The notes: generated from the letters alone by a model not told the origin. Shown: positions 10,343-60,915, counted from the first letter of the stretch. The stretch: 64,000 nt of DNA from an uncultured beta proteobacterium (GCA_963801035.1 CAWDDF010000010.1:212496-276495); one strand, 5' to 3'. A program made the numbers and translations.

Positions 10343-10348
10343 GCTGAC

Positions 10349-12969: not shown

Positions 12970-13081
12970 GACGCCTCCTGGCTCGGGAAGACGCTAGCTT
13001 AGCGGGCCGCGGGCACGGCGTGTGCGAGCAAAGCGCAAAGAGCCACGCAGCGACTGTGGCAAGCATGGGAACGAAGAGCGC

Positions 13082-27238: not shown

Positions 27239-27676
27239 CTACGACCTCTTCCGACGCGTCGGCGTTGCCGAACCGAATGACGCCGAAAATGCGTCAATCT
27301 CGAGCTCGAGAGTTTCAACCAATGGCTCGTTGCCGAGCGCGTTCAGGTGTGACAACGAGTAGCCACTCGGGCGGGCGTTATCGAACGTCCAGCGATTGGC
27401 GTCAGCTCCACGCTCATCGATTAACACCACGGTAACGGCTCGCTTCGGCGCGGTTCGAGATGTCCGGGACTGATCCCACCATGCGTACCATTCCGGTGAA
27501 CGGGTCACGCCGCGCCTGAGGATCAGCGGCCCGTACTGAATGGCCTTCGACTTGCGTGGACCGGTAATCAAGCGTGCTTCCGGGAAAATCACCTCGACCG
27601 CGCCGGTTTCTTGCAACCCGTCGATCTCGATGCGAAAGCGCATGTTGCCGAACGGCTCACGCTCCGCAGTTTTCAT
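27239..27676 (-). CDS. Phage tail-tube-like protein (T4 gp19 / TIGR02241 family), paralog 2
   Basis: MKTAEREPFGNMRFRIEIDGLQETG…LILRRGVT…VTVVLIDERG…LNALGNEPLVETLELE. It shares the RFR-IEIDGLQ, L-RRGVT and LNA-GNE…E-LEL blocks with paralog 1. ATG 27676 is chosen inside track ORF 27239..27763. Confidence 0.75.
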   Translation of the reverse strand: MKTAEREPFGNMRFRIEIDGLQETGAVEVIFPEARLITGPRKSKAIQYGPLILRRGVTRSPEWYAWWDQSRTSRTAPKRAVTVVLIDERGADANRWTFDNARPSGYSLSHLNALGNEPLVETLELEIDAFSASFGSATPTRRKRS

Positions 27677-27720
27677 ACGCAAATCGATTGTGTCCAGTGC
27701 GCTTTCGGGATCGTCTCGGC

Positions 27721-28155
27721 TCACGACACTCGTTCGATGCCCTCGTTCGCGAGCTCCAAGCATTCGATGAAAACCTCATTACCTTTGGCGTTGAGATCGC
27801 TCGGATCGTATTTTGTCGGCCATGCGTTAGTCACGACAAAGCGTGCTCTGTCGTCGCCGCCTTCGCCCAAGACAACGATCACGACATTTCTTCGATTCGT
27901 GTTCAGTTGACCTTGGACGATCTGCTGGTGCCACTGGAACAGTTCGAGCGAATCAGTCACGCCGCGTTTCAGGGTGACGTTTCCGAACTTGGTGAGTCCA
28001 GATAACTTTCGTACACGTAAAGGCTCGTTTCCCTCGCGATAGTCTATTGCTTCGGTAGTTGTGGCACCGATCGCGACTTCGCTAAAGCCGGCCACCTGCA
28101 GCCCATCGATCTCCAACCGGAATCGAGCATTGCGTAGCGGGTCTTGGCGTGCCAT
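27721..28155 (-). CDS. Phage tail-tube-like protein (T4 gp19 / TIGR02241 family), paralog 1
   Basis: MARQDPLRNARFRLEIDGLQVAGFSEV…IDYREGNEPLRVRKLSGLTKFGNVTLKRGVTDSLELFQW…VVIVVLGEGG…LNAKGNEVFIECLELA. This pattern is typical of eCIS/Afp1-type tube proteins. A GGAG RBS lies 7-8 nt upstream of the start. Confidence 0.8.
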   Translation of the reverse strand: MARQDPLRNARFRLEIDGLQVAGFSEVAIGATTTEAIDYREGNEPLRVRKLSGLTKFGNVTLKRGVTDSLELFQWHQQIVQGQLNTNRRNVVIVVLGEGGDDRARFVVTNAWPTKYDPSDLNAKGNEVFIECLELANEGIERVS

Positions 28156-40000: not shown

Positions 40001-41204
40001 GCTGCTGCTCGCATCTCGGCTCATCGCAACCGAAGGGTACGGAGCGGAGCGCGTCGAGCGCGTGTATGCGCGCGCGGAAGTGCTGGCTCGGCAAGCCGGC
40101 GACGAAGTTGCGCTGACAAAAGTGCAGTTAGGTCTTGAGGGTTATCACTTCATGCGCGCCGATTTCGACAAGGCCCATGCCATTACGCTTAGCACTGCGG
40201 CGATGGTCATTCGCTCACCTGACCCGATGCCGAAGATCCAGTCGATGTGGGCGGTGTCAAACATCCTGTTTCATCAGGGCGAGGTACGCGCTGCGGTTGA
40301 TCACATGGACGACTGCCTGCGCGCCTATCAGCGCATCGAACACCGACCGGGCGCGGTGCAGGATCCGGGCGTGATGTGTCTGTGCTATTCGGCTTGGGGA
40401 AAGTGGGAGCTCGGATACCCGGACGAGGCCCTGCGCCGCGCGCGGCAAGTTGTCGCCCTCGCCGAAAAAATCGATCACCGCTTTAGCATGGGCGAAGCCT
40501 GGGGCTTCTGCACGACCGTACATTACTTCAGAGGCGAATACGAACAGGCGCTGCGATGCGCTGAGCGCGCGATCGAGATCTGTGAGGACAGTGGATTTGT
40601 GGTGTGGTTGGCGCATGCGAAGGTGATGCACGGGCGGCTGGTGGCAGAGCTCGCCGGCGCCGACGCAGGCGTTGCGGAAATGCAGCAGGCGTATCAGATG
40701 TGGTCTTCGACCGGCGCCGTGGTGACGCAGGCGTTTTACCTCGCAATGCAGGCGGAAGGTTTGTCACTCGCCGGCAAGCCCGACGAGGGCATAGCCGTGC
40801 TGGACATCGCATTTGACATCGTTCAGAAGGTCAAGGAGCGATACTACGAAGCCGAAATTCGCAGGCTGCGCGGAGAGCTTATGCTGCAATCGGCAGTGCG
40901 TTGGCGCGATGCGGCTGCCGAAGCCGAGCAGTGGTTTACTGGCGCGCTTGAGTTAGCTCGCGAGAAAGAACTGCGGTCGCTGGCGTTGCGCAGCGCAATG
41001 AGCCTGGCGCAGCTATGGCGAGCGCAAGGCCGAGGGAGTGACGCGCAGATGTTGCTCGAAAAAGAGGTCTCATGGTTCAGCGAAGGGCTCGATACGAGCG
41101 ATCTGCGGCGCGCCCATCGGCTGATGAGGCGTAGTGAGCAAACTAATGACAAGTCTTGGCTAACCAAGTCGCTTCACACGCCGAAAGCACGGCTGGTGCA
41201 GTAG
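37029..41204 (+). CDS. Multidomain signalling protein: degenerate CHAT-like N-domain / class III nucleotidyl cyclase / AAA_16-type STAND ATPase / TPR array
   Basis: Residues ~95-325 follow a CHAT pattern (GIAWELAFDG; DVVHCTGS; LVVYELYGD where the catalytic Cys is expected; GINVVIRATTPGDASSVEFIIDLYRHIVSGMTFASA). The cyclase core is ITIMSHDLVNST…QGDDGIMCYFG…VGISTGRVV…VAVHLAARL (~38052-38543). The P-loop is LLTGEAGIGKSRL (~38688-38711). The C-terminal ~500 aa look TPR-like. Confidence 0.8.
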   Translation: MQMHNFDAPVRPLHLAAVRDAALLTISLSDLRSIAIVEPVAMGPDALEDLARSVERLHDLPVGNSQQVAEAGSLIFRTLFPGRIGATLHSSPPRELHLQLSAPVTGIAWELAFDGTSFLGTKFSVSRYIAGEDEVAPAHSWAPLEEACRVLLVSDDSHSTQASAYQDRILNSLRALKELSPTAATVAELSRGQLHDLIAASDVVHCTGSPGGARVLLADLAALAHPPRLVVYELYGDRSTTAEISTDDAVRLCADASRIGINVVIRATTPGDASSVEFIIDLYRHIVSGMTFASATQQARAASAARSDACRVDDLLAMYCGDSGAAAFARVERDSRDDSQRQITIMSHDLVNSTQLIARLGAEEYTELLERYHGVCARIVRRYGGISDEPQGDDGIMCYFGTPLADEDASAQSIRAALEIVQALEGFGVGVRVGISTGRVVIRAGQPVGVAVHLAARLQSVAEPGTIVVSNATQRLTQGRFEFEPIASALHLKGIAEPIVAFRVVSELRFSTSSRFDAALSLTPFIGRDREVAVLEGYWQTTCRGAAQAVLLTGEAGIGKSRLVREFKSSLAARETPTIECRCSPYHTSSAFYPVIGWLRRLLEIQDHDAPETRLAKIEDSAVATLGVEDAVTTIATLLSVPLDGLRSPPKRSPEKQRQLTLDVLVQWIKTIVQAGPLCVFIEDVQWLDPSSREFLERLMASASSLPLMTILTLRTEAVAPRAEVRMTWGASFPYSELPLRGLSSAAARTMVLKACGDARLSQEMVRLLAEHADGVPLFIEESTRMAVEAVPEQGELQAAALLRSPVPPTIHDLLMARLDRVAAAKQIAQVGATIGREFSRALIESVLQHEAAGIDAGGLRSKLDMLVQSGLLVSRGGGPDEGYFFKHALVRDTAYQSLWERDRQRLHCVIANVVQHQFAALAEAQPELLAYHYTEGRMAGDAVAYWEKAARRAAARSAHLEAITHLNNGLALVGNLPDAQERGRAELRMQLLLASRLIATEGYGAERVERVYARAEVLARQAGDEVALTKVQLGLEGYHFMRADFDKAHAITLSTAAMVIRSPDPMPKIQSMWAVSNILFHQGEVRAAVDHMDDCLRAYQRIEHRPGAVQDPGVMCLCYSAWGKWELGYPDEALRRARQVVALAEKIDHRFSMGEAWGFCTTVHYFRGEYEQALRCAERAIEICEDSGFVVWLAHAKVMHGRLVAELAGADAGVAEMQQAYQMWSSTGAVVTQAFYLAMQAEGLSLAGKPDEGIAVLDIAFDIVQKVKERYYEAEIRRLRGELMLQSAVRWRDAAAEAEQWFTGALELAREKELRSLALRSAMSLAQLWRAQGRGSDAQMLLEKEVSWFSEGLDTSDLRRAHRLMRRSEQTNDKSWLTKSLHTPKARLVQ

Positions 41205-41221
41205 ACGCCCCAGGAGGCAAC

Positions 41222-43150
41222 ATGGTCGAGGTGGTCGAAGTCAATCTAAACGCATTCGACGAGCTGATGCGAAACAAGCCGTACGCTGCAAATCGTTTGC
41301 TTTTCGACTGGTTGAGCGATGACAGGCGTCGCCTGGACCTGTACGAGGCGTTACGCGACCGACGGGTTCTAAAGTTTCAAAGCCGCGCCGAGATCAAAAA
41401 CCCACCGCCGCAGCCACCGACGTTCAGGCAAGACGTTTTTTTAGTGGCTTCGGCCGATCTGATCAAGGAAGCGCTGTCGGACTCGGCCAGATTCAGCAAC
41501 ACACCGTACGCCGCGCTTGGAACCGGCACGTTCATGTTGGCACTGAACGACCGCGATCCGGCGCATCCGAAGCAACGTGCCTTCGTAATTGACGCCCTTA
41601 AATCAGCATCTGACCCTGAGCATCTAACGGCGCTGATCAGGACCGCATTCCGAGTCGCGGCTACGCTGCCACTGAAAAAGTCAGAGTTCGACCTCGCGCA
41701 ACTCGCGGAACAAACAGCGTTGCGCTTTGCCGGCCTGATGTTCGGATATTTGGCCAGTGACCATCCGATGCTCGAGAACACGCTTAGCAGAGCGTTTCGC
41801 GGTCTTAACTATCAGATTCTCGCGCGGCACTTTGTCAGCGAACCCGGTACGGTTCCGGATGCCACCGGGGCAATGGGAGCGCTGCTCACGCGCACTGCGG
41901 CGCTGATCGACCAGTATGCCTCCTCCGGGGTTCCGTCAGAGCAAAAGGAGCTCTACGAGAAGATCGGGCTCAAGAACTTCAGCCCGGCGTTCGAAGTGAT
42001 GGGCCAGCATCCCGCCGAACTCTCCGGCACCGAGCGTGCTATCGCAGCGGTGGGCACGCTTGTCGGCATCATTGGCAACGTACAGGCAAGCGTCTGCATT
42101 GCCGTCAACCAGATCTTCGAGGATAAAGAGCTACCCGAAGTTGCGCGAGCGGCACGCGATGACGACTTCGTTATCCAGCGGGTCGTACGCGCGCTAAAGC
42201 AGCATCCGCCTGCTGCCTTTTTGCCACGCCAGGCTATCAAAGATACCGAGCTTGGCGGTGAGAAAATTCCGAAGGATTCGGTTCTGATCCTGGCAATGGG
42301 AGCCGCCAACGATGAAGCGTTGATCTTCGGCGGTAACAACGATTCATATGGGCATCGATGCCTCGGCAAACATCTCGCGTTACCGCTTATAGTGAGCATG
42401 GTCAAGCAAGTCGTGCTGCTGCCCGGACTCGCTCGTACAAAAGACGTTGTGACGGGCGACCCGATTCGACTTTCAAAGTCGTGGGGGTTCAAGTGCGAGA
42501 AGTTTCCGCTGCGCTACGACCGCGACCAGGTGCTGATACAGCAGCCGCTGAACGTCATCATGAACGTTAAGCAACCGGTACCCGAGAACGCCGCGAAGCT
42601 GAAGCTTGTGATCAAGTACGGCGCGCCTCAGATTGAAAGCAGCCTAACGGCGTCCCGGCATGTGCATTTCGCGTGGTTCGTTTTTCTCGAGAACGACACC
42701 AAGCTTGCCTTGTTCACGACTTACGATGGAGATTTCGACGCCTACATCGAGCACTTCGCATTGCAAGTAGGTCCACTGTTTGACAGGTTGTTGGAACACA
42801 TCGAGGATGCGCCGCCGCGTCCCGTAAGGCAATTCCCCAAGGAGTTCGTCGAAACGATTCGGCGCTACAACGAGGCGCCGGTCGAGGGCTACTTCTTTAG
42901 CGCCTATACGAAGCAAAGCGTAGCGGCAATCCAAGGCGCCGCTACAGCCGCCGAAAAAACCCGGAAAGCGGTTTTACAGAAAGCACTGCGTATGACACTC
43001 GTCGAATCGGCAAATATTGAGCACATCGCAAAACCCGTCGCAGCGCGCCGGCCGTCGGGGATAGATCTCGAAGCCGCACAGATCCAGCGCATTGTCGTCG
43101 TCTGGGTACCGGTCGCAGTGCGCCCGCCACTTCGTGCTGGCAATTGCTGA
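41222..43150 (+). CDS. Atypical cytochrome P450-like domain plus unassigned ~150-aa domain; reading frame runs into the Dyp N-terminus
   Basis: An aggagg RBS precedes ATG 41222. The P450 Cys-ligand loop is FGGNNDSYGHRCLGKHLALP (Cys codon 42359-42361). LKQHPPAAFLPRQAIKDTELGGEKIPKDSVLIL matches the K-helix/meander region. The I-helix region GIIGNVQ lacks the usual acid-alcohol pair. The frame-1 tail IDLEAAQIQRIVV looks like a Dyp N-terminus. Confidence 0.65.
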   Translation: MVEVVEVNLNAFDELMRNKPYAANRLLFDWLSDDRRRLDLYEALRDRRVLKFQSRAEIKNPPPQPPTFRQDVFLVASADLIKEALSDSARFSNTPYAALGTGTFMLALNDRDPAHPKQRAFVIDALKSASDPEHLTALIRTAFRVAATLPLKKSEFDLAQLAEQTALRFAGLMFGYLASDHPMLENTLSRAFRGLNYQILARHFVSEPGTVPDATGAMGALLTRTAALIDQYASSGVPSEQKELYEKIGLKNFSPAFEVMGQHPAELSGTERAIAAVGTLVGIIGNVQASVCIAVNQIFEDKELPEVARAARDDDFVIQRVVRALKQHPPAAFLPRQAIKDTELGGEKIPKDSVLILAMGAANDEALIFGGNNDSYGHRCLGKHLALPLIVSMVKQVVLLPGLARTKDVVTGDPIRLSKSWGFKCEKFPLRYDRDQVLIQQPLNVIMNVKQPVPENAAKLKLVIKYGAPQIESSLTASRHVHFAWFVFLENDTKLALFTTYDGDFDAYIEHFALQVGPLFDRLLEHIEDAPPRPVRQFPKEFVETIRRYNEAPVEGYFFSAYTKQSVAAIQGAATAAEKTRKAVLQKALRMTLVESANIEHIAKPVAARRPSGIDLEAAQIQRIVVVWVPVAVRPPLRAGNC

Positions 43151-44411
43151 CCCGGTTCGGGCGCGGCGATGGCTAGCCGCGGTGGCAAATGAAATCACGC
43201 TGGCGTCGAACAAGGACCCTAAGGACCGTCACGATAAGACCGAGCACATCAACGTCGGCTTTACGTATCGCGGTTTACGGAGCCTGCAGTTGGACGCGAA
43301 GTACTTGTCGATCTTCCACGTCAAGGCCCCCGCCTTCACCGAAGGCGCGTGGTTCCGCGCGGCGCGCAGACTCGGCGACACCCTCGAGAGCGACACGGAT
43401 TTCTGGGACGATCCGTTCCAGCCGGACTCATCGCACGTGATACTGCTGTTGCACGCCGAATCTGAAGAGGCACTGGACGATACGGTCAAGCGACTCAGGG
43501 AATATGGCGGTGCCGATGGGCTGTCAGGTTGGGACGAAGCATTCGACGCCGCGCACATTACCGACGACCCGGATGACCGGCGCGCGCACTTCGGGCTGAA
43601 GGACGGCATTACCCGGGTTCACATCGAGGGCATCTACCAAGGCGACGATCCGAACATGCACAAACCGGGCGAGCTGCTGCTCGGCTACACGAATGACGAA
43701 GGGTTTAACCCATGGGTGCTGGCCAAGCAGCCCGATGAAGTCGGCGAATTCTTCAAGGACGGCAGCTTCGGTGTGTTTCGCAAGATGGAGCAGGACGAAG
43801 CGGCATTTAACACGTTCGTCGGTCTGTGCGCCGCTGCGCTGGGAGAAACTCGCGAATACGTCCTCTCCAAGTTCGTCGGGCGCTGGCCCGATGGCCAGGT
43901 AATTGACGCGAAGTCGCATTCGATCCCGCCGAAAGCTTTGCCCAAAGGTGGCCGCGTTGACGATTTTGACTTCAGTCAGGACGATCGTGCTATTGGCTGT
44001 CCGTTCGGCTCGCACATCCGGCGCATGAATCCCCGAAAAGACGCCGTCGTTCCATTTCGCCGGCGGCCGCTGATACGGCGTGGTATGCCCTACGGCAAGG
44101 CATTCGCGAAAGGTAGCGAGTCGGAAAAGCGCGGCTTGATGGGTTTGTTTTTCTGCGCCAGCATCGAAGATCAGTTCGAGCACCTGGTTGCCGAGTGGGC
44201 GGAAAAGAATCCGATCGGGATCAATAATCAGGGCGATTGCAAGGATCCACTGACAGGAAGCCATGGGGCAGCGCCGTCGATCTTTGATATTCCGATGCCC
44301 GATGGGTCGTCGCGCAAGATCGTCGGCTTTCGCCCCTTTGTCATCACCCGCGGCACGCTGTACGCGTTTTTCCCCACCAAGCCGGCGTTGCAGGCGATCT
44401 CCAAGAACTGA
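43092..44411 (+). CDS. Dyp-type haem peroxidase (probably fused to, or frameshifted from, the preceding ORF)
   Basis: The GxxDG motif is HFGLKDG (Asp codon ~43602). The proximal-His motif is GCPFGSHIRRMNPRKD (His ~44013). RRGMPYG is present. The N-terminal SGYRSQCARHFVLAIADPVRARRWL continues the upstream frame's …AAQIQRIVV. Confidence 0.8.
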   Translation: MSSSGYRSQCARHFVLAIADPVRARRWLAAVANEITLASNKDPKDRHDKTEHINVGFTYRGLRSLQLDAKYLSIFHVKAPAFTEGAWFRAARRLGDTLESDTDFWDDPFQPDSSHVILLLHAESEEALDDTVKRLREYGGADGLSGWDEAFDAAHITDDPDDRRAHFGLKDGITRVHIEGIYQGDDPNMHKPGELLLGYTNDEGFNPWVLAKQPDEVGEFFKDGSFGVFRKMEQDEAAFNTFVGLCAAALGETREYVLSKFVGRWPDGQVIDAKSHSIPPKALPKGGRVDDFDFSQDDRAIGCPFGSHIRRMNPRKDAVVPFRRRPLIRRGMPYGKAFAKGSESEKRGLMGLFFCASIEDQFEHLVAEWAEKNPIGINNQGDCKDPLTGSHGAAPSIFDIPMPDGSSRKIVGFRPFVITRGTLYAFFPTKPALQAISKN

Positions 44412-44471
44412 GCACATCGGCGCACGCCCAGGAAGCGTCTGTCGCGACTACCACGGTTGGCTGCCCGAACT

Positions 44472-46473
44472 ATGCAAGCGGTGCGCGCGCGCATAAAGCG
44501 ATGGTTAAACCGCCGTGAAGACACGGGTTGTGAGCAAGGTAAGCCCGATCCCGAACCCGAACCCTTTGTCGACAAGGCGCCGCCCGATCGCTTTTGCGAT
44601 CTCGTGCTGACGGGCGGTGTTACCAGCGGCGTCATTTATCCGTCCGTCGCCGTCGAGTTAGCACGCCATTACCGCTTCAAGAACATCGCCGGCACTTCGG
44701 CGGGCGCCATCGCGGCAGCCTTGACGGCGGCGGCGGAATACGCGCGGCGCAAGAGTCTTCCCGGCAGATTTGAGGCATTGAGCGACGTTCCGAAGCGGCT
44801 AGCCGAGGAAGGTCAACGGCAAGACGCGCTTGCTGTCGCTATTCCAACCGTCTCCGAAAACGAAGCGCCTATTCGGGCTTTTTCTTGGCATGTTGAACAA
44901 GAGCGAGGCCGGATCAGGAATGACATGGTCTGGCATGCTCGCCTGGACACTGGTAAAGCAATACTGGTTTGCGTTGGTTGTGCCGCTGCTGCTGGGATTG
45001 GCGCTCGCGTACGCGGTCACGCCGCGCTGGCTTGCGGTGATGGTCGGCCTCTGCGCCTTCGTTACCGCCGGTGTGATATGCGTTGCCCACCGTGTGTACA
45101 GAGACCTGAATGACGGCATGATTTCCAACGGGTTCGGTCTATGCAAAGGAAGCGAAACCAGCGATCCCGAGAATCCCGCTTTGACCGACTGGCTGCACGA
45201 AAATATTCAGAAGATGGCCGAAAAGGCCGACGCAGAGCCGCTGACTTTTAAAGATCTGTGGCGCGCGGAGCCATTACCAGAGTGGCTGGCTGACTTCTTC
45301 CCGCCCGACAAAGGAAGGGCAATCAATCTGCAGATCATTACCGCGAACCTGACCCATGGCCGTCCCTACCGTCTGCCGTTGGATGACGACTCGACCCGTC
45401 TTTTTTTCAAGGAAAGCGAGTGGCGAACATACTTTCCCGCCGGCGTGATGACGCACCTCTTGAAAGACAACGTCTCGCCGCGGTATGCGCCACGCGACAG
45501 CTCGGAGCCGCCCATTGATGGCGACACCGAAGGTCTGCGTGAGCTTCCAAAAGACAAGCTTCCGATCGTAGTTGCCGCGCGCCTGAGCCTGAGCTTCCCG
45601 TTTCTTTTTTCGGCGGTTCCCCTTTGGGCCATCGACTTCGAGCCAAAGATCGAAGTCGACAAAACGCACCGAAGAAAGCTGCGGCGGTGCTGGTTTTCTG
45701 ACGGCGGCATCTGCTCCAATTTTCCGATCCATCTATTTGATGCCTTCCTGCCCAAATGGCCGACCTTTGGCATTTCTTTGGGCCGACGCAGCCCGTTTCG
45801 CCCCGCCGAGCGCACTTGGTTGCCTGACTTTCATAACGAGGGGAGCGCGGACGCTTGGAACCGCTTCGATGATGAAACATCGCTGGCGACCGGCAAGCCG
45901 CGCAAATCGCTGCAGCGGCTCGTCGGTTTCGCGATGAGCATCATCGCGACAGCCAAGGACTGGAATGACAACACCGAGATGCGAATGCCAGGCTACCGCG
46001 ACCGCGTCGTTCGCGTCGGGTTCTGCGACGGTGAGGGAGAATTGAATGTCAGGCTGGACGATAAGGAGATCCTGCGGCTTGCCAGAGACTATGGCACCGC
46101 GGCGGGTAAAAAGCTTGTGGATAGATTCATCGGTCGGGACCCGGACTGCCCTTCGCAGGCCTGGAGAGATCATCGATGGGTGCGCTTCAATGTATTGCTG
46201 CAATCACTGCGCGAGCGCGTCAATATGATCACGCTGGCAGCGGAAGCAACGCCATACACGCAGCCGCTGAAGGAGCAGATCGCCAAAGCGTTCGCGGCGC
46301 GCCCGCTGTACGGCGTTAGGGATCATGAAGCGCCGTTGAGCGCGGCACAGGCCGACGCACTGGACGGGCTGCTCAATGCAATGATTGAACTTGAGCGGCA
46401 GTTCGAGAAGTATGCCGCGCAGCAGCCGTATCAAGCGGAGCCGAGGCCAAGCTTGAGAAATCGTCCGCCCTGA
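44472..46473 (+). CDS. Patatin-like phospholipase with internal TM hairpin and long C-terminal domain, interrupted by one apparent frameshift near 44805-44830
   Basis: Oxyanion region LVLTGGVTSGV. Nucleophile elbow GTSAG (Ser ~44697). Asp of the dyad in WFSDGGICSNFPIHLFD (~45700). Hydrophobic stretches are WFALVVPLLLGLALAYAV and LAVMVGLCAFVTAGVICVA. The two track ORFs (44457..45113 and 44830..46473) are collinear. Confidence 0.8.
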
Positions 46474-46490
46474 TAATCGCCGAGACATCG

Positions 46491-46682
46491 CTATCGGGTT
46501 CTGAGCGAAGTAACCGGCCTTAGGGTCGGTTCAACACATACTGCTTCCACGACACTCCGCCGGCGATGCTTTCCTTGTCTCGAATCATGTGACTCGCCGA
46601 ACACGTCGCGCAGATCGCGACACAGGTGCCCTGCAACGTACTGATCTGGATGTCGACGGTAGCTAACGAAGATCTTCGTCAT
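46491..46682 (-). pseudogene. TIR-domain gene remnant (N-terminal ~55 aa only, frameshifted)
   Basis: MTKIFVSYRRHPDQYVAGHLCRDLRDVFGES continues in another frame as MIRDKESIAGGVSWKQYVLNRP*. This covers only the TIR beta-A/alpha-A/beta-B region. The rest is missing, because the convergent patatin gene ends at 46473. Confidence 0.6.
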
Positions 46683-46748
46683 TACTCAACAATCCGTCGC
46701 GGGCATTGCAGTTTCAACGCGAATATTCGGCAAAGGCTGACTGACCGA

Positions 46749-49700
46749 TCAGTTCGTCCTGCCATACGTCTGCAGTTTCGCCAGCAGCTCTCCGGCTGCG
46801 CGACCCTCGCCGCCTGTAGCGCGCGCTGCGTACTTCGGCAGCACGAACGACGCCTGGTCGATTACCGAGCTCCACATCGAAGGCGCGCTGACGCGGGCGA
46901 ACAGATCCTCGAATTCCTGCTCGATCTCGGGGCGCTCGGCCGCGAGACGCCGCTCTGCGATCGCGATGTACATGCGCAACTCGATGACGCCAACGAAACT
47001 CCAGAAGTCAGGATCGTCTCGCGCCTTGGCCGCGAGACTGTCCCTTATTTCTGCCAACACCGAGTCGTCGAACTTGTGCGAGCTTCTGTTTCCTGCATCG
47101 ACGATCAGCTCAGCCGCCATCCGATTCAGCGCCGGATAAAACAGTGCTGAGCGATCGGTAGCGCGCGCGAGTGCCTCTGCTCGCGCATACGCTGCCTTCA
47201 TGCCGCTAATGGCGGTGAGCTCTTTGTCCGGCTTTCCGGCCGCTGCTTCAATCAACGCGAGTCGCTTCCACGCGGAGCCGCAAAGATTCTCACGCTCGAT
47301 CGAGGGCTGCAGCCTGGTCAGTCCTTCGAGCAAATCGAGCGCGGCCTTGACTTCCGCTCGCGCGTGCTCCAGTTGCGCCGCACTCGGCTTGGCTTTACCG
47401 GTGTGAGCCTGCTCTACAACTTGCAATGCAAGTCGCGAACGCAGGTTGCCGAGTTGTTCGCCCGCCTTGATCGAAGCGCTTCCATCGTTGGCGGCGAGCG
47501 CTTTGCGGTACCACGCGATTGCCGACGCGAAGTCTTTCGTCTCGGCCCACGCGACGCCGTAGGCCTCGGCCACCGCCCCCATGTCACCCCAGTGTTTTCC
47601 GAATTGCTCTTCGAGGTGGCGGATCTTCTCGCGCTGAGTCTCTTTGTCCGCTTTCTGGTAGCGGCTCTTTATCGCCAGTGATTCGAGCGCAAGCGTTAGC
47701 GCGACGGGGGACGCGACACCGGCAAACTCATCGGCCAGGGGCGGAGAGGGGTGCTGTGCATCGCCGACGCCGCGGCGGAAAACCCAGTCAGGATCGCCGT
47801 AGCACTGGTAGGCGCCCCACGTGTTACCTCCTCGCGCGTGCGCTGCGGTGCGCGCTGCCGCCACGGCGTCGATGAAGCGGCGGCCGCATAGCAATGCGTC
47901 GTAGAACGTCGTCGCAAAGATCATTGCAGGCTCGTCTTCAACCGCCCAACCGGCAGCGACGACGCAACGCACGCCGATCTTGATCAGCTCTTCGGCGACG
48001 TTCGCGGCGAAACGCGACCGGTCGTAAGAGCCCGTAAGCACCTCGCTTGGATTGCGTGCCGCCAGATGGCAGCAGTTGACGAACACCAGCTCCGGCACTG
48101 CACGCATGTTGCGAATCTCGCGCGTGCCGAGAAACGAGTCGCCCGACAGCACGACCCCGCGGGGATTGACGAGCTGCTGCAAGGGGTCATCTTGCTTTTT
48201 CGGAATCGGACCCGCCATCTCCGGCGGCTCGCCGTGGCCAGCGATGTGCACGATGCGCCAGTCGCGCTCCATCAACGTGTTGATGACGGTGAGCGCGTCG
48301 GCACCGAACTGCTGCGGGTCATCGGGGCTGATCAGCGCCTTCACTTGTTGCGCGCCAACCGTCTTCAAACGCTCTGCGACCGCGTTCGCCTCGATGCGCG
48401 CGCCGATCAGGCGCGGGTACCGGCTATCGCATTTGGGTTCGCCGATTACGAGCACGCTCGCATCGGCGTCGGCGTCGACGATCTGTTGGCGAAACTCTGC
48501 CGTCCGCAGCTTGCGCAGAAGCTTCGCGCGAATCGCCCACGGCGGCTGGTCGTGCGACGTGGCGCCTTGGTCGGTGTCGAGCAGCTCCCAGGGAATTCCG
48601 GCGGTGCCGCTGTCGAGCTCCATCACCATTTCGGTGGTCCCGCCGAGGAACGGCTCCATCTCGACCGGCACCAGCAGCTGGAACAGCGTGCGGCCGATAC
48701 GCCGATCGGTGTTCTGATCGTTCGATGCGCTGGCTACCAGCTCGCGCAGCAGCGGCCCCTGTGTGGCCTGTGCACGAACTTCAGTTCGCGCCCGCTTGGT
48801 ATCGAGCGTGTACGCGATCATGGCGTCGTTGTGCAGGCCGAGTTGTGTGACGGCCGAGATGAAGTCGTAGTTGACACCTCGATAGCTCGAGTCGAGCGGC
48901 CTCCGCAGCGCGCCGGTCCCTTGGCGCACGACGTCGGTGACCGCATAGCGGCCCGGTGTTGCCGTGTCCTGCACCTGCAACGAACGCCAGGCCTCGGTCG
49001 CGCGGTCGAGATACAGCTCGACCAGATGCAGGTGGCCGACGCGAGGCCAGCGGCGAACGGGGCGCTTGCTGTCGGCTGCGCGCTCCAGGGTCTCCTTTTC
49101 ATTGGCCTCACGCAGACGATCGTCCGCCTCACGCACGCCTTGTACGACGAGCTGCGCCGACTGGCCCACGGTGATCCCGGTACCGCCGCTGCCGATCATC
49201 GTGGCCGCGAGCTCGAACAGAGCGGGAGCGTCGGCGTTGGTCTCGCCGATACGTTGTGCCCATGCGATCGTCGCTTGCCGCACCGTGTGAACAAGCTCAG
49301 CGGGGGAAAGTTTGCCTTCCTCACCGAGGCCGACCACGACCACCGCTTCAGGTCGCGGCGGCAGCCACGGGTTGTCCGGATCTGCCTGCATATTGATGAA
49401 CACCTGGTGCGTGCCGGTCGGTACCGGGTATAGGCCGACCTTCAGCGCGTCTTCCATCGCGCCGCCTATCAGCTGGTTCATCACGGCTTCGGTGCCCGAC
49501 AAACGCAGAGAGCGATAGTGTCCGATCAATAACGGCTCGCGGATGAAACGAAGGTCGCCATTGACGACCGTGACTTGCAACGCGGCGCCGCGCGCGGCCG
49601 GACCGGCGATGGTCTGCCGATCGTCGAGCGAAAGCAGTTCGCGCGCGTTCTCCGGCGGCGGTCCGGTCACCCGGGTGCGTGACGGCCGGCTGCGTACATG

Positions 49701-52377
49701 CGCGACCGGTGCGGTTGCGCCGCGAACCTCCGCCTCAGCAAACGGCTGCAGCAAACCCGTAGTGCCGGTGCTCAGCAGTTCCACGTAAGCGGGAAACGCC
49801 GCCTTCTCGTCCGGCAAGCCGCCATGCTCGCAGTCGAGTTGCCACGTGCGGACACCCGGCAGGCGCGCGCTCGTAATCGTCACACGGCCGTCGCCGTGAT
49901 TCGGCGCGTCGAGATACACAAGCCCTTCGTCGCCGATCTCGTAGCCATCGGGTGTGAAGCGCGCTTGACCCACGACGAGCTTCACCTTGTCGCTGAACGA
50001 GGCCAGGTCGGCTGCTATCTGCGCATCCAGGCGCTGGCGCAGGGCCAGCGCGCGGTCAAGCACGGACTGTGGCGGCACGCCCCAGGTGCACGACTCTATC
50101 TGCAGTCCTTCGTGGTGCCACCAACTGTTCTCGCGCACGCGTTTCAGATCCTCGTCGGCGAGCGCCTGCCACGTCGCGTGTTGGTCGAGCGCAAGCTTGG
50201 TGTCTAGCAGCCCGGCCTGCAGTTGAATGAATCCCGGCATCCGAGCCATCAGCGCGCGCGCGGTGCGATCCTGAAACGGTGCGCCGAAAGTCACCAGCAG
50301 ATTGCCGAACGTGTCGTCGCCGGATAGCACCTGCATCGGAGCCCACGAACCGCCGTTCGGCGTGCCTAGCATCAACAAGCGCGCATCGGGGTGCGCCATC
50401 ATCCGCTGCCAAACCTTCGGCTTCTCGAGCTGCATCGTGCGCGCGAGCACTCCGCCCATCGAGTGAGCGAGCAGGCGGACCGGCTTACCGCTCGCCTTGC
50501 GTGCGTCGAGCGCGGCAGTGACCGCGTCTGCCAGACGCGCCGCTTCGTCTTCTATCGGACGCCGCCAATCGAACGCGAATTCGATGACCTCGTGCGTCTT
50601 TGCCAGATACTCGCCGAGGTCGTCATAGCTCATCCCGACTGGCCCGTCGGGCTCGACACCGTCGGGCTTGCCGGTGTAGTCGAGCTTCTTGAGGCCGTTG
50701 ATCAGGCGCCAGCCGAGCCAGATGCGTTTGCCGTTGACCTTTAGGTTGCTGCCCAAGATGCCGGGCAGCACGAACACCGCTGGCTTGTCGCTCGCGGGCT
50801 TGCCGTCGTCGGCTCCGCGTATGCGGCCACGCACGCCGGTGGCCGATTCGCCGGACCACGACAGCGGCCCAATGACGCGAAAGCCGGTGGGCATGTCTTG
50901 CGTGAGCGCGTTGACAATGGCTTCGGCCGTGCGCTCGTTGCTGAAATAGTTGAAGTGCGAAACCTTGCCGCCCTGGTCGAGCACGAACGTCGCCCCGGCG
51001 GCACGTGGAGCACCGCCGTACATCGAACGCGTCTGAACCACCAGGTCGTTATCGGTCCAGTAAAACGAATCGGCCAGCAGCGTCTTCAGCCACGACATCA
51101 CCGAGTCGCCCTCGATGTCGCCGGCCACCACGCGCAATTCGCCCGGGATCGGCTCGTCTACCGCATGCAGCCAGCGCACCAGCGGACTGTCGGGAATCTG
51201 CGCCGCGAGGCCGGGAATCTTGTCGGGGTCTGCGCGTCGCTGTGCCACCTCTCCCAGGAAGTCGACGAGCACGGGCGCGACCGGAATGCCGGCCAGTTCC
51301 AGGGTCCACTTGAACACCGACAAGTACGCGTCGAGTCGCTTGGACGCGAGCAGCGTGCCGCGCGCCGGGCATGCCACGCGCACGATGCGCTCGACCTTGA
51401 TACCGCGTGTTTTCACCTCGTCGACGAGCGTCTTCAGCGCATCGCGCTGCGCTTTGTATTCGGTGCCCTTGAACAATGCCGTGTCGTCGGGGCTCAGCTT
51501 CGGGTTTGCACAAACGCGCGCCAGTACTTCCGCCACCAACCCGCCGCGCGAATGAGTGACCAAGTGCAGGCGCGCTCCCTTGGGCAGCGCCTGCACGAGC
51601 GTCAACGCATTGCTGATCGGGCCAACGCCCAGCGTCGGATGCTCGAGTCCATAAACTCGGTCGGCATACTTTGCGAACAGCGTGCGCACGTGCTGTGGGT
51701 ACTGCGACCACAGTTTGGAAAATGAGCCGCTGGTCGTCGTGAACGTGCCATGCACGAACACCAGCAGCGGCCCGCCGTCGGCCGCGGCCGGCGCCTGCGC
51801 AAGCGGCTTGCCGGTGCCCTTCAGCGGCGGCAGCGATTCGCGCGGCAATGCATACAGGCCAGCGGTTACCTGATTGTCGACACGTTGCACCGCCTTCGTG
51901 ACTACGAAGTCGGCTGCATCGCCTTTGCTGACGCCGGTGACCACCTCGATCGCCGACAGCAACACGTCGCCCAGGAAGCCGCGGGTCGCACCACGGACTG
52001 GCGCTTCTTTCTCGAGTCCGCGCCAACGCAGTTGCGCGGGAACTCGTACCTCGTTGGGTCCCGGTTGATCAACACCCTGCTCCGCGAGTTCGTTTGATTT
52101 GGCCTTGCTGACCCAGCATCAGGTCGCGTGCGTTTTCGGGATGCAGGGTCAGTGCCGGTCCGCCTGCGATGTGCAGCACGACAACGTCCTCGCCAGGCAT
52201 CGCTGCAACGCGTACCTCGGCACCGACGCCGCGCTGCGCGCCAACGCGTACGGATTGCTTCAGAACTCCGCTGGTCAGCCCCGCCGGCAGCGGTGCGGCC
52301 GCCGCGCCGCGCGTTGCGGCGGGCTGCTCCTGTCCGGGAACGAGAAAGACAATCGGCTGTGCAGCGGTCGTTGCCAT
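46749..52377 (-). CDS. Giant multidomain protein: N-terminal leader domain / two lipase-like alpha/beta-hydrolase modules / LAP-N (macro-fold)-like module / CHAT protease / C-terminal helical repeats; one apparent frameshift between 52072 and 52118
   Basis: Track ORF 46749..51965 (1738 aa) has several motifs. Hydrolase 1 is LLVFVHGTFT…LVTHSRGG (Ser ~51551). Hydrolase 2, LCAT/PGAP1-like, is FVLPGILGS…FDWRRP…LLAHSMGG (Ser ~50462). The LAP-N-like pattern is VTVVNGDL…LLIGHY…AVVVVGLGEEGKLSPAELVHTVRQA. The CHAT dyad is RIVHIAGHG (~48236) and LVFVNCCHLA (48069-48074). Its frame stays open upstream to 52118 and overlaps the end of ORF 52069..52467. The latter's internal ATG at 52377 (MATTAAQPIVFLVPG) has an aagga RBS and sits 19 nt after the amidase stop. 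Confidence 0.75.
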
Positions 52378-52396
52378 CCGTCGATTCCTTATGACT

Positions 52397-53104
52397 TTAG
52401 CGGCGTACGAGCGTCGAGCGCGTGCGCGCTCGAGTTTTCTTCTTCGGCGCTTTGTGCATGACGCCAACTTTCACCGCGCCGCGCTGAACCGCCATCGCGG
52501 GCGCGTTGCGATCGAGCGCGCGGCCGGCGATTGCCGCCAGTGGAAACGCGGGCCCAGGATCCTGCTTGCGTCCGCGCGCGATGTCTTCGTGGCCGAGCAC
52601 GTCCTGCAGTCCGTAGTAGTCGACTAGCAGCTTGGCCAACTCGTGCGCACGCTCTATCTGCACTTCGGTGTAGACGTGCCACGGCCGCGTGCCGCCGCCG
52701 TGTTTGTGCTCTGCGAGCATCACATCGCCTGCACCGTATTCCTTGCCGAACCACGCGATGAACTTGTCGCCGACCCTATTCAACCAACCGGCATTGTCCA
52801 TCTCAATGCCGATCGAAGCGCGGTTCAGCCCCACGAGTCCATTCCACTGGCTGACTCCGGCATGCCAGGTGACGATGTTGAACGGCGCGAGTTGCACGAT
52901 GCGCCCGTCGCGCGACACCACCAGATGTGCAGACGCGTTTCCCTGCGGCTTGCGAGTGCACAGCGACTCGACCGAGCTGTCGGCCGACCGGCCCGCCGTG
53001 TAGTGGAACACCAGAAAGCGTGCTTTCAATTCGCCGCCGCAGTTCGGCGTGGCGCGGAAGCTCACGCCGTCTCCGATCAGCCGATGATTCTCGATGCTCA
53101 GCAT
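52397..53104 (-). CDS. N-acetylmuramoyl-L-alanine amidase (Amidase_2; AmpD/PGRP-type)
   Basis: Track ORF 52397..53296. The preferred start is ATG 53104 (MLSIENHRLIG), 7 nt after the caspase stop. Motifs are FLVFHYTAG…ASAHLVVSRDGRIVQL…TWHAGVS…SIGIEMDN…GHEDIA…KQDPGPAFP. Confidence 0.85.
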   Translation of the reverse strand: MLSIENHRLIGDGVSFRATPNCGGELKARFLVFHYTAGRSADSSVESLCTRKPQGNASAHLVVSRDGRIVQLAPFNIVTWHAGVSQWNGLVGLNRASIGIEMDNAGWLNRVGDKFIAWFGKEYGAGDVMLAEHKHGGGTRPWHVYTEVQIERAHELAKLLVDYYGLQDVLGHEDIARGRKQDPGPAFPLAAIAGRALDRNAPAMAVQRGAVKVGVMHKAPKKKTRARTRSTLVRR

Positions 53105-53111
53105 GGACGGC

Positions 53112-54030
53112 TTACACCGTAAATGGACGCTGCGCGACGAAGCGCGCGACGTCGCCGAGCAGATACAGATTCGGCGTCTGTCCTGGCGGCATGCCGGCCC
53201 GGATAGCGGCGTGAAAACTTGCGTAGTTTCCTTGGTAGGCGCCGCGGTTCCACACTTGCAACAGCTGCCCCGTAAAGGCGCCGTTATAGTCGCCATCCAT
53301 CGACGTCTGGTTGTCCTGGCAGCCGGAGATAAGAATCACTGCGGCTTTGAACTTGCGCACGATCGCACTGACGCGACCGCTGCTTACGCTGAGGTTCGAC
53401 AGCACCGCATCCGGATCAGCGATACTGGCTTTGCCGGCATTCTTGGCGATGTCGGCCTGCAGCTTGTCGTAGAACTTTTGATGCTGCTCGTATGCCCGGC
53501 GCCCGACCTCGACCGGCATCATCTTTGAGCGACCAATGACTAACGTGCCATCTGCATTCGGCCGACGAGCGCGCGTGACGGTGCCGGAGTGGCAGCTGTC
53601 GGATAACACGAGGATGCGCACGCCCGTCGGCGAAGCGGCTCAGCTCGTAGTACAGCTCGTCGTCGATCAGCTGACCGTCGTACAGACACCAAGTCTCGTC
53701 CTGCTTGTCGGATTCGTCGCCGGTGATGTCGGGCACCTGGCCGCCATGACCCGAGAAGGTGAGGAAGAAAAAGTCTCCTGCACGCAGCGACTTGGCGGCA
53801 TCACGAATGCCGGCCAGTATGTTCGCGCGCGTGCCCTTCTTCGTCAGCAACACGCTCGTCTTCATGCCCTGCGCTCGGGCAAGCGCAGCCAAGTCGTGCG
53901 CGTCGAATTCACACGCCGCGAGAGGTCCGCTCCAGCCGCCGTAGGCCGAAGGGCTCACCGTGTTCAGACCAATATTCAGCGACAGCGCCCGCGGCTTGGT
54001 CGCGAGTGCCTTGCGTCGTTTGCCTGCCAT
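53112..54030 (-). CDS. Caspase-fold (peptidase C14) protease, interrupted by one apparent frameshift near 53620-53632
   Basis: ATG 54030 ([23 protein letters not shown]) follows a gggaggag RBS. The catalytic His is in [11 protein letters not shown] (~53746-53748). After the shift at a gacggg run the frame reads [13 protein letters not shown], with the catalytic Cys at 53592-53594. Confidence 0.8.
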
Positions 54031-54204: not shown

Positions 54205-55989
54205 ATGTTCGGTCCCCGCCTGTTCGTCAGCTACCGCCGCGCCGACTCGGAGGCCACCGCTGGCCGCCTGTTCGAGGCGCTGAGAGCGCGGTTCGGAGAT
54301 CGCGTGTTCTTCGATACATCCAGTATTCCGTACGGAGAAGACTTCCGACGCGTGATACGAACGCGCATAGCCGCGAGCGACGTGGTGCTTGTCGTCATCG
54401 GAAAACAATGGCTCACTGCCGCCGACGAGCGCGGGCTCAGGCTGCAGCAGCCGGACGATCCGGTTCGCTTCGAGATCGAAACCGCACTCGCGCGCGACTC
54501 GGTGCGAGTAGTGCCGGTGAGAATTGATCACGCTGAGCCGCCGCCCGAGTCGGCCCTGCCGGCGTCGATTGGCGCGCTGGCGGCGCTGAACATGGCGCAG
54601 CTGCGCAACGAAACGTTCGACGTCGATTTCAACGCGCTGGTCGAACAACTGCACGGTCGGATGCCCGGCGACGTCGTCCGCGAGCTCGACTGGAGCAGTC
54701 GCGTCAAGGCGACAGCAGCGGCGTTTCCAATCGCGGCGATAGCGATTGCACTGCTGGCGCTGCTGGTTGCATGGTCAGGCGCACTCGACCTGTTGCACAT
54801 CGACACGCATGTGCAACGGCTCTTGCTCGCTGCCGGCGCCCGCAATGCCGGTGAGCCGGTACTGCTGGTGGGCATCGACGCAGCAAGCGAGCGTGAGCGT
54901 GGCAGACCCTTTGGGCCCGCTGAGCATGTGGCCGCCTGGCGCCGCGACCACGCGCGCCTGATCGATCGTGCTGCGCTCGCTGGCGCTAAGGCCGTGGTGT
55001 TCGATATTTTTTTCGAACGCACGACCGATGCCGATGCCGAGCTCGCCGCTGCTGCGCGTCGCGCCGCCAAAGGAGCAACACCGACGCGTGTGGTCTTCGG
55101 CGTGCGCCGCCTCGCAGGCGACGCGCCCGAATTGCCGCCGATCCTCCGCGACGCTGGGCAATGGGGGTCGCTGTGCCTGATCGACCGCGGTGGTGGTGCT
55201 TTGTGGTCGACGCCGCTTGCAATCGCGCAGCGCAGCAGCACGCGCGCCGGCGACTCGGTTGCAGCGGTACATCCAGCGCTGTCTTTGGCGGCTCTGGTGG
55301 GCGAACCGCTACGCGCAGCCGATCTGTCCCGGCGTGAGCTGCGATTCGACGGGCCGCTGCGTCTAACGCCGGTTCGCTTCAGTACGGTCGAGCCGACGCG
55401 GCTCGACCATCCTTCGTGCCCCATCGCGCGTGACGGCGACGACCAGTTGACGCTGCTGCTGCGCGTTGCCCCGGCTGGGCACTGGCGCGACGCGGCGCGC
55501 CAAGTGTCGTACGCCGACGCGCTGGATTCGGCGCGCGTCGGCGACGATCGCTTCAAAGGCCGTGTCGTCCTCGTTGGAGCGATGGCGCTCGAGCGTCCCG
55601 AAGCGAACGCCGACATCCACATCGTTCGCGAAGGCTTTGTGCCTCGCCAAGTGTTCGGCGTCGAACTGCAGGCCGACGCCATCGCGACACTCGCCAGTGG
55701 CCGCGTGCCGCAACTGCTTACCGTCGGGGGTCATTTCGCTACGACCCTGCTGGCCTGCGCTCTCGGGGCGGTAGCTGCGCTCGGGTTGTATCGCCAACCG
55801 CGATGGTGGCGCCGTGGTGCGCTGCTTGCGCTGATGCTCGCCTGGATGCTCGTTGCGTGGTGGCTAGCGACGCGCGACATCGTGATCAACGCAGCGCATG
55901 ATGTGATCGCGATGCTGCTGTCGTATCTTGCGCTGCGCGCGACGCAATGGTTCGCGCGCACCTTCCAACGCGTGCGGAGACCGACATGA
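54205..55989 (+). CDS. TIR-domain protein fused to a CHASE2 extracytoplasmic sensor domain (multi-pass membrane protein)
   Basis: The TIR domain is [47 protein letters not shown]…[12 protein letters not shown]…[14 protein letters not shown] helix follows. The CHASE2 pattern is [12 protein letters not shown]…[29 protein letters not shown] … [18 protein letters not shown]. There are C-terminal TM helices. Confidence 0.85.
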
Positions 55990-56663: not shown

Positions 56664-57257
56664 GTGAAAAAGATGGCAACGCCGCGGCTCATATTTTTGT
56701 TTAGCGGTCACATGATCGACAAGCTGGGCCGTAGGCATCCGCGGTTTCCGCCCGAGTGCGAGCCGAGCGTCGCCGCTGCAATCGACGCCAAGCTAACCGA
56801 GCTGGGTGCTGATGCTAATGATTTGGGAATTACTCAGGGTGCGTGCGGAGGCGATCTGCTGTTCGCCGAAGCCATGTTGAAGCGCGGTGCAGCGCTGGAG
56901 CTGCATTTGCCGCTTACTGAAGAAGTGTTCATTAACCGGTCGGTCGATTTCGAGAAGGCGTCGCTCAATAGTCCCGACCGCTGGCGCGATCGGTTTCTCG
57001 CTGTCCGGCGCCATCCGTCCGTTGCTGTGACTGTGATGAGCAACGACGGCCAAGCGTCAGACGATGTATTCGAACGCTGCAATCTGTGGATGGTCGAGCG
57101 CGCACTTTCCTTCGGCGCCGACAAAGTGCGCTTTATCTGCGTGTGGAACGGCGAAGGCGGCGACGGGCCGGGTGGCACAGAACACATGCGTAAAGCGGTG
57201 GAGCAAAGCGGCGGCGCGCAGTACTGGATCGATACTCGCAAACTGTGTCAGCAATAG
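56664..57257 (+). CDS. Hypothetical protein, possibly SLOG-fold (LOG/DprA/YpsA-like Rossmannoid)
   Basis: 197 aa. LIFLFSGHMID…GITQGACGGDLLFAEAMLKRGAALELHLP resembles the (S/Q)G-x-x-G-x-D…A glycine-rich loop of SLOG families. A later motif is VWNGEGGDGPGGTEHM. This is weak, motif-level evidence only. The start could be GTG 56664 or ATG 56673. Confidence 0.35.
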   Translation: MKKMATPRLIFLFSGHMIDKLGRRHPRFPPECEPSVAAAIDAKLTELGADANDLGITQGACGGDLLFAEAMLKRGAALELHLPLTEEVFINRSVDFEKASLNSPDRWRDRFLAVRRHPSVAVTVMSNDGQASDDVFERCNLWMVERALSFGADKVRFICVWNGEGGDGPGGTEHMRKAVEQSGGAQYWIDTRKLCQQ

Positions 57258-60742: not shown

Positions 60743-60915
60743 GTTGCTTGCGTCAGTGCCTCATACCTCGGCGCGTCGTACGGTAACGTCGAAGAAGGAA
60801 TTGCCGAGGTAGTGGGCGTTGATCTTCCCGCCCGAACCGCGATCTGGCGATCGACTTCCCGCTTCACTGCAAGGTCTGCGAACCATGCGGGCAGCATTAC
60901 AAGGGACTGATTTAT

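Follow-up and report, generated by a model that had tools for sequence, protein, structure and literature searches.

A predicted giant multidomain hydrolase-protease found mainly in Burkholderiales, encoded by a gene with a probably artefactual split, and its possible link to TIR signalling

The stretch of DNA analysed here (64,000 nucleotides (nt) from an uncultured beta proteobacterium, GCA_963801035.1 CAWDDF010000010.1:212496-276495; hereafter, the window) carries on its minus strand, in this order, a caspase (Peptidase_C14) gene, an Amidase_2 gene, a gene for a giant multidomain protein and the stub of a TIR gene, the first three being only 8-19 nt apart (Table 1). The giant gene is present in the form of two open reading frames (ORFs). 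The long one, 46749..51965(-), encodes 1738 amino acids (aa) in a frame that is open from stop to stop as far as 52118, and the small one, 52069..52467(-), overlaps this open frame by ~16 codons. Judged by the orthologs, in which the two parts are contiguous, these ORFs represent a single gene, and the small ORF, starting from ATG 52377, is the true N-terminus of the giant; this ATG has AAGGA in front of it and lies 19 nt downstream of the Amidase_2 stop. When 2 nt are put back, translation yields a single ORF of 1,876 aa.

The evidence for a single gene comes from the comparison of the joined frames with 5.8 billion proteins, which yielded 302 homologs, with 98-100% query coverage in most of the best ones. 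Seven of these homologs (P0001, which is 97% identical, P0002, P0004, P0006, P0029, P0054 and P0063) cross the junction uninterrupted. The ortholog sequence reads ...LMLGQQGQIKRTRGAG up to the junction and GVDQPGPNEVRVPAQL... beyond it, and both P0001 and more distant homologs read through as ...LMLAQQGQIKRTRGAGGVDQPGPNEVRVPAQLRW.... The frame of the small ORF is right up to ...RTRGAG, almost to its own stop, the frame of the giant is right only from VDQPGPNEV on, and 'SNELAEQ' lies outside the real protein. A scan of GTDB species genomes detected relatives in at least 576 of the 185,579 species-representative genomes. About 50 of the 59 genomic loci examined contain one ORF of 1,820-1,900 aa that begins at the same N-terminus and not at the GTG near 51965; isolates with an intact ORF include Hydrogenophaga taeniospiralis, H. 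intermedia, Hydrogenophaga sp. 2FB, Rubrivivax albus, Rubrivivax sp. A210 and Bradyrhizobium tropiciagri. The full-length relatives were taken from genomic loci; the protein database returned no match above ~1,175 aa although proteins of ~1,870 aa exist in NCBI genomes. Most of the database homologs of the giant are truncated or have out-of-frame tails. The family consists of widespread, uncharacterised cytoplasmic proteins of ~1,850-1,900 aa, mainly from Burkholderiales and also from Bradyrhizobium. An earlier reading of the window from the sequence alone (the sequence-only reading) had proposed that the N-terminus of the giant is probably encoded by the small ORF; the contiguity in the orthologs bears this out, and the open frame between 51965 and 52118, the overlap and the start site that it described are all present. 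Its junction, placed near 52100-52118, was ~11 residues off, the shift being located at 52075/52076.

At this position, the window reads GGAGCAGG^GTG on the minus strand, compared with GGAGCAGGCGGTG in L001, an ENA contig of 64 kb with 97.3% identity to the window, which amounts to a 2-nt deletion. In its wider context, L001 has GGAGCAGGCGGTGTTGAT where the window has GGAGCAGG--GTGTTGAT, and one base is missing at the same site in L082 (98.9% identical) and in the 105-kb contig that carries P0382. This non-repetitive site thus occurs in three lengths among four near-identical assemblies, of which L001 alone is in frame; the gene split is not a biological feature but a 2-nt deletion where the sibling assemblies vary. 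This deletion is most probably a consensus error of long-read metagenome assembly, as opposed to a split or a programmed frameshift of biological origin, because the siblings differ in length, other genes of the window are frameshifted as well and the rest of the giant gene is under purifying selection. At least four further genes of the window contain frameshifts, housekeeping ones included (Table 1). Each assembly has private indels: an extra A at 53627 of the window breaks the caspase gene, which is intact in L001 and L082, an extra T in L082 breaks the TIR-CHASE2 gene, and L001 has dozens of single-base insertions within the giant gene. Broken copies are found at 5 of the 10 'MFD' loci from long-read metagenome-assembled genomes (MAGs) versus 1-2 of the ~46 other orthologous loci. 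Leaving the shift site aside, the copies of the window and of L082 have 38 synonymous and 7 nonsynonymous codon differences, the latter conservative, and therefore, the rest of the gene is under purifying selection.

The alternative is that the 2-nt deletion is real, in which case the gene would be a fresh pseudogene, or would give an N-terminally truncated product of 1,738 aa from GTG 51965, in a decaying locus. The state of the surroundings agrees with such decay, the adjoining caspase gene being frameshifted, the downstream TIR gene a stub and the patatin gene split, and two sibling assemblies are likewise out of frame at 52075/52076. Furthermore, what was compared is assemblies, not reads, which leaves room for a real deletion in the source strain, and repeated indels at one site could also indicate a genuinely unstable site. 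Nevertheless, a real deletion is unlikely: the sibling indels differ in size (-1 vs -2) despite ~99% identity, the other 5.2 kb of the gene are intact, with nonsynonymous divergence (dN) far below the synonymous one (dS), and it would explain neither the frameshifted housekeeping genes, nor the private indels of each assembly, nor the concentration of broken copies in long-read MAGs. Programmed +1 ribosomal frameshifting or phase variation at the GGCGG site, for which one could cite the indels at exactly one site in three of the four related assemblies, is rejected as extremely improbable because there is no slippery motif or repeat tract at the site, the shift comes in two different sizes and the frame is intact in the orthologs, those of all isolate genomes included.

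Several observations on the window itself belong here. Residual indel errors amount to roughly one per 9 kb. At 60766, in the intergenic DNA that follows the OmpA-TPR gene, the window has one G more than L001 and L082, a probable consensus indel. Two genes at 13022-17895(+), one for a CheB-CheR fusion and the other for a PAS/GAF histidine kinase, have 170 nt in common and might be a single gene that is broken. A frame plot of the G+C content at third codon positions (GC3) of the window had too little discrimination to map frameshifts. In the annotation, the two ORFs should be merged and the split marked as probably due to an error of the long-read consensus at a site where trouble recurs; comparable splits affect many database entries of the family.

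Table 1. The giant gene, its predicted domains and other features of the 64,000-nt window
Feature	Coordinates	Strand	Details
Giant gene	46749..52377	-	one gene; 1,876 aa once 2 nt are restored
N-terminal beta-rich domain, aa 1 to ~150	51930..52377	-	family-specific; the small ORF corresponds to the first ~100 residues
Frameshift site	52075..52076	.	minus-strand reading GGAGCAGG^GTGTTGAT; 'CG' missing relative to L001, one base missing relative to L082 and P0382
Alpha/beta hydrolase 1 (DUF7379)	50865..51782	-	candidate residues S277 (51549-51551), acid D421 or D443/D445, H475 (50955-50957)
Alpha/beta hydrolase 2, LCAT/PGAP1-like	49740..50762	-	FDWRRP; candidate residues S640 (50460-50462), D830 in GDGRV (49890-49892), H852 (49824-49826)
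Linker	49590..49739	-	poorly conserved; pLDDT below 50; 37% identity over aa 901-950
Macro-like alpha/beta/alpha domain, aa 931-1163	48891..49589	-	pLDDT 85-98; Gly-rich loops GLGxEG, GSGG, GH
CHAT (caspase-superfamily) protease	47796..48632	-	H1382 (48234-48236), C1436/C1437 (48069-48074)
TPR-S (TPR 'sensor') helical repeats, C-terminal	46752..47762	-	Pfam PF20308
TIR gene remnant	46491..46682	-	MTKIFVSYRR...; 66 nt past the stop of the giant gene; frame-broken, cut off at the end of the convergent patatin gene
Amidase_2 (AmpD/PGRP-type) gene	52397..53104	-	235-aa gene call in L082
Caspase (Peptidase_C14) gene	53112..54030	-	Pfam match split over two ORFs; intact 305-aa form in L082
TIR-CHASE2 membrane receptor gene	54205..55989	+	Pfam TIR_2 and CHASE2; divergent; kept with the locus in L001, L002 and L082
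197-aa ORF	56664-57257	+	no Pfam, PADLOC or NCBIfam match; near the caspase or giant gene in 14/80 related loci
Split ABC permease	9419-9871 and 9546-10520	-	frameshift
Split acyl-CoA synthetase	19727-20260 and 20257-21303	+	frameshift
Split patatin gene	44457-45113 and 44830-46473	+	frameshift

The gene split, then, is ordinary; it is the fused architecture of the protein and the macro-like domain that are the interesting parts. From the N- to the C-terminus, the repaired protein is predicted to consist of a family-specific N-domain, a DUF7379 serine hydrolase, an LCAT-like serine hydrolase, a flexible linker, a macro-like domain, a CHAT cysteine protease and TPR-S repeats. Its profile matches make it a bona fide member of the CHAT (PF12770, 81.9 bits vs the cut-off of 24), DUF7379 (PF24096, 98.3 vs 33) and LCAT-like (PF02450, 25.9 vs 21) families and, marginally, of the TPR-S family (PF20308, 28.4 vs 27.6; PF20308 is precomputed on most of the homologs). 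Neither a signal peptide nor a transmembrane segment is predicted in the giant. Database labels of the family members are limited to 'DUF7379 / CHAT domain-containing / alpha-beta hydrolase', and no paper found by a full-text literature search mentions DUF7379. Residue invariance was scored across 50 full-length orthologs, and two parts of the protein, namely, the N-terminus with DUF7379 (on P0001) and aa 864-1539, were modelled with AlphaFold using deep alignments.

The model of the N-terminus and DUF7379 has a mean predicted local distance difference test (pLDDT) score of 81 and a predicted template modelling (pTM) score of 0.84, with a pLDDT of 82-95 for the N-domain. The N-domain has no Pfam match, and the 200 matches obtained for it among 1.84 billion representative proteins all belong to the family of the giant. 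In the ~20 full-length proteins listed among these, the domain is nearly always N-terminal and lies further in only in two or three longer ones; the remaining matches are mostly short fragments whose context is not visible. The idea of an adaptor shared between the N-domain and the C-terminal region of the TIR proteins encoded downstream was rejected given an hhalign probability of 0.2%, which indicates no relationship.

For the first hydrolase, Foldseek finds only generic alpha/beta hydrolases in the PDB. S277, D421, D443, D445 and H475 are invariant; the acid of the putative triad would be D421 or D443/D445, the D443-D445 loop being modelled with low pLDDT. The second hydrolase aligns with human LCAT (4x96, E=4e-4) over a region that covers the HSxG nucleophile elbow, where Ser181 of LCAT is located. 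It shares with LCAT and group XV phospholipase A2 the xDWR motif, the GHSxG-type elbow and the 'LGxPxGGS' segment, followed in the giant by invariant Asp and His downstream; unlike these enzymes, it is a bacterial, cytoplasmic module embedded in a multidomain protein, and only ~90 residues align. S640, D830 and H852 are invariant; D830 and H852, candidates for the counterparts of LCAT D345 and H377, lie past the end of the PDB and Pfam LCAT alignments. Both modules thus contain invariant Ser/Asp/His candidates.

The model of aa 864-1539 (pLDDT 83) consists of a disordered linker, a confident alpha/beta/alpha domain, a connector and CHAT. The alpha/beta/alpha domain is, as far as the model can tell, macro-like and has not been recognised previously. 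Foldseek matches it at TMt 0.55-0.74 to YmdB (1spv), 2dx6, macroH2A1.1, PARP14 macro1 and MacroD2, and a library of viral structures likewise gave macro-domain proteins, but the macro-like N-domains of leucine aminopeptidases (LAP) are matched as well. The GLGxEG and GSGG loops, located at the positions of the two macro ligand loops, are invariant and may bind a ligand. We use the term 'macro-like' because the fold matches, but there is no sequence-level Macro match.

In the CHAT domain, H1382, C1436 and C1437 are invariant and include the putative catalytic His-Cys dyad. The best structural match of this region is Csx29 (8eey_B, E=1.2e-10), together with DdvA, separase and SAVED-CHAT (8tl0). 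The PDB profile search with the macro-CHAT alignment retrieved only TPR proteins and a weak SAVED-CHAT match. Stand-alone macro-CHAT-TPR-S proteins of ~950 aa are encoded in Paraburkholderia and Cupriavidus; they cover 89-90% of the query and start just past the linker. The motifs to which the sequence-only reading pointed (THSRGG, AHSMGG in the FDWRRP context, HIAGHG and FVNCCH) are all present in the ORF, and the C-terminal helical repeats, which it estimated at ~340 aa, span ~337 aa; it overlooked their TPR-S identity, the macro-like domain and the caspase, amidase and TIR context. Its protease joined to two lipases is borne out at the level of domains, but its picture of a molecule that simply attacks proteins and membranes falls short, as the overlooked features suggest an immune or suicide effector that is regulated and acts inside the cell.

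The caspase gene is the most conserved neighbour of the giant gene, located immediately upstream on the same strand in 37 of the 80 related loci, and the amidase gene is found in 16 of the 80. The divergent genes upstream encode TIR-CHASE2, a FecR-like protein, a conserved 197-aa protein, a GDSL-like protein, TIR (58446) and OmpA-TPR. Among the loci with enough flank, ~18 of 62 have a TIR gene within 4 kb, in 11 cases an intact one directly downstream on the same strand, and the downstream TIR proteins combine a TIR domain, a transmembrane helix and an extracytoplasmic domain. De novo clustering of the flanking ORFs was noisy, owing to antisense ORFs in high-GC DNA, and gave usable clusters only for caspase, RlpA, SDR and TIR. 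In Paraburkholderia terrae (AP029615.1, L083 5695-12753), the stand-alone macro-CHAT-TPR-S gene follows a TIR-like gene (a weak match, E=0.008), and its flanking genes encode a GH19 lysozyme-like protein and an M15 peptidase with a peptidoglycan-binding domain; these flanks echo the Amidase_2 gene beside the giant and suggest a recurring link to peptidoglycan hydrolases.

In the TIR proteins of these loci, the TIR domain is N-terminal to the membrane and extracytoplasmic sensor parts (TIR-CHASE2 in the window, and TIR, transmembrane helix and periplasmic beta-rich domain in L031 15499-16647 and similar loci), a topology in the style of Toll-like receptors (TLRs). The window contains three intact TIR genes (25782, 54205 and 58446) and the one remnant. 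The first of these (25782-27212(-); 476 aa; relatives annotated TPR) adjoins a T4 gp19-like tail-tube gene (27239-27763(-)). Synteny with the siblings stops right after the stop of the giant gene (46653-46717 of the window vs L001 and L082), which makes this a strain-variable junction, past which the window has the TIR stub and genes for patatin, DyP, a P450-like protein and a cyclase-STAND-TPR protein, and L001 and L082 have unrelated genes. Another conflict or signalling module may lie at 37029-44411(+), where the gene for an adenylate/guanylate cyclase-AAA_16 (STAND-like)-TPR protein of 1,391 aa precedes a P450-related ORF of 664 aa and the gene for a DyP-type peroxidase.

By analogy with known systems, the giant could be an effector of abortive infection or programmed death that resembles those of Thoeris and responds to a signal made by a TIR protein, a proposal that we make tentatively. 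Under this scenario, a TIR protein, often membrane-anchored and equipped with an extracytoplasmic sensor, would make a signal derived from ADP-ribose (ADPR), the macro-like and/or TPR-S domains would bind this signal, and binding would switch on the CHAT protease, as in SAVED-CHAT, the caspase-like effectors of type IV Thoeris and Craspase. CHAT would then cleave cellular targets and/or the linker, which would free or activate the two lipase-like hydrolases, and these, once released, might attack membrane lipids. There are precedents for the individual steps. Macro, TPR and caspase-like modules sense or execute TIR signals in Thoeris systems: the macro domain of type II senses His-ADPR, the type IV effector is a caspase-like protease, and TPRs of the TPR-S kind are predicted to sense TIR signals and are present in the type VIII effector, which depends on cyclic ADPR (cADPR) (bioRxiv 10.64898/2025.12.03.692087). 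In conflict systems, caspase-superfamily peptidases consistently have alpha/beta hydrolases as partners (PMC7159879), and assemblies with a TPR core have TIR, patatin or caspase neighbours (bioRxiv 10.1101/2023.05.26.542521).

Several points weigh against gating by TIR and against a role in defence. The TIR gene directly downstream of the giant in the window is only a stub, ~70% of the orthologous loci have no TIR gene within 4 kb, and several isolates have the giant by itself. Many loci share RlpA and SDR housekeeping neighbours, a pattern that resembles vertical inheritance and not a mobile defence island. The TPR-S match clears the Pfam threshold by <1 bit, and neither Pfam (E<=0.01) nor the PDB profile search gives a sequence-level Macro match, the macro call being one of fold only. 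Finally, when the giant and its neighbours were scanned with PADLOC and NCBIfam, the giant was not assigned to any known defence system.

Some of these observations are also what would be expected if the giant were an autonomous, TIR-independent sensor-effector, the main rival to the TIR-gated mechanism, in which TPR-S would bind a phage or host protein directly, in the manner of Avs-like or gasdermin-associated TPR proteases, and the macro-like domain would be a scaffold comparable to the LAP N-domain. The scarcity of nearby TIR genes, the isolates that have the giant alone and the missing Macro signature all fit such a sensor, as does the match of the fold to LAP N-domains, which are not ADPR binders. 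Yet, rare as TIR genes are, one adjoins the giant in ~18 of the 62 loci and also in the split Paraburkholderia version, the Gly-rich loops at the two macro ligand-loop positions are invariant, and the TPR-S family has been tied by others to TIR signalling (bioRxiv 10.64898/2025.12.03.692087), so that we consider a TIR-independent sensor rather unlikely. An exported toxin that would carry the lipase and protease into target cells in interbacterial competition or virulence is very unlikely: the hydrolytic modules do resemble polymorphic toxin cargo and the OmpA, amidase and GDSL-like neighbours are envelope-related, but the protein lacks a signal peptide and transmembrane segments, no PAAR, VgrG, Rhs, secretion-system or immunity-like gene was seen nearby, and sensor-type domains such as macro-like and TPR-S, as well as caspase and TIR partners, are what one typically finds in conflict systems that act inside the cell.

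The resemblance to described systems is in each case partial. As in Thoeris (type II with Macro, type IV with a caspase-like protease and type VIII with the TPR-containing ThsI), TIR is often adjacent and the giant has macro-like, TPR-S and caspase-superfamily protease modules; the difference is that in the giant a single chain of 1,876 aa combines all of these with two serine hydrolases, and TIR is missing from most loci. The Thoeris effector models of PADLOC and NCBIfam do not match the giant. TPR-CHAT (Csx29) of the type III-E Craspase similarly combines TPR with a CHAT protease under sensor control, but the TPRs of the giant are C-terminal and of the TPR-S type, the macro-like and hydrolase domains are additional, and there is no Cas7-11/gRAMP or CRISPR array among the neighbourhood ORFs and Pfam matches. 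SAVED-CHAT, from CBASS and type III CRISPR signalling, is a fusion of a nucleotide-sensor domain to CHAT and offers a model for ligand-induced activation, but its sensor is SAVED, not macro-like or TPR-S, and it has no lipase modules. In the vWA-MoxR/VMAP conflict systems (Kaur et al. 2020, PMC7159879), an alpha/beta hydrolase is also coupled to a caspase-superfamily peptidase, whereas the giant fuses both in one polypeptide, and no MoxR, vWA or VMAP component was found among the window ORFs scanned. The identification of the giant as a Craspase, a SAVED-CHAT protease or a catalogued Thoeris type was ruled out given that PADLOC and NCBIfam give no match and that the partners and domains differ.

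Overall, a single gene with an artefactual split and a Thoeris-like effector as its product is the best explanation of the data and, in our opinion, a reasonably likely one. A more elaborate version, in which the giant would be a single-chain, signal-gated executioner, is doubtful: membrane TIR receptors of Toll-like-receptor topology (TIR-CHASE2 or TIR-transmembrane-periplasmic) would generate an NAD-derived messenger, the macro-like and TPR-S domains would both read it, and CHAT would deploy the two serine lipases with the partner caspase and the peptidoglycan amidase. If true, TLR-like sensing, caspase-type proteolysis and lipase-type effectors would come together in one bacterial pathway, reminiscent of the route from TIR to the lipase-like EDS1 in plants. 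The repaired protein defines a large family in which modules known to sense TIR-derived nucleotides are, by prediction, joined to three hydrolytic activities. The pairing of a protease with lipases has been noted computationally in other conflict systems and never explained; if the giant is gated by TIR, it would represent a new class of Thoeris-like effectors and would provide a tractable system for learning how a caspase-superfamily protease and lipases are coupled.

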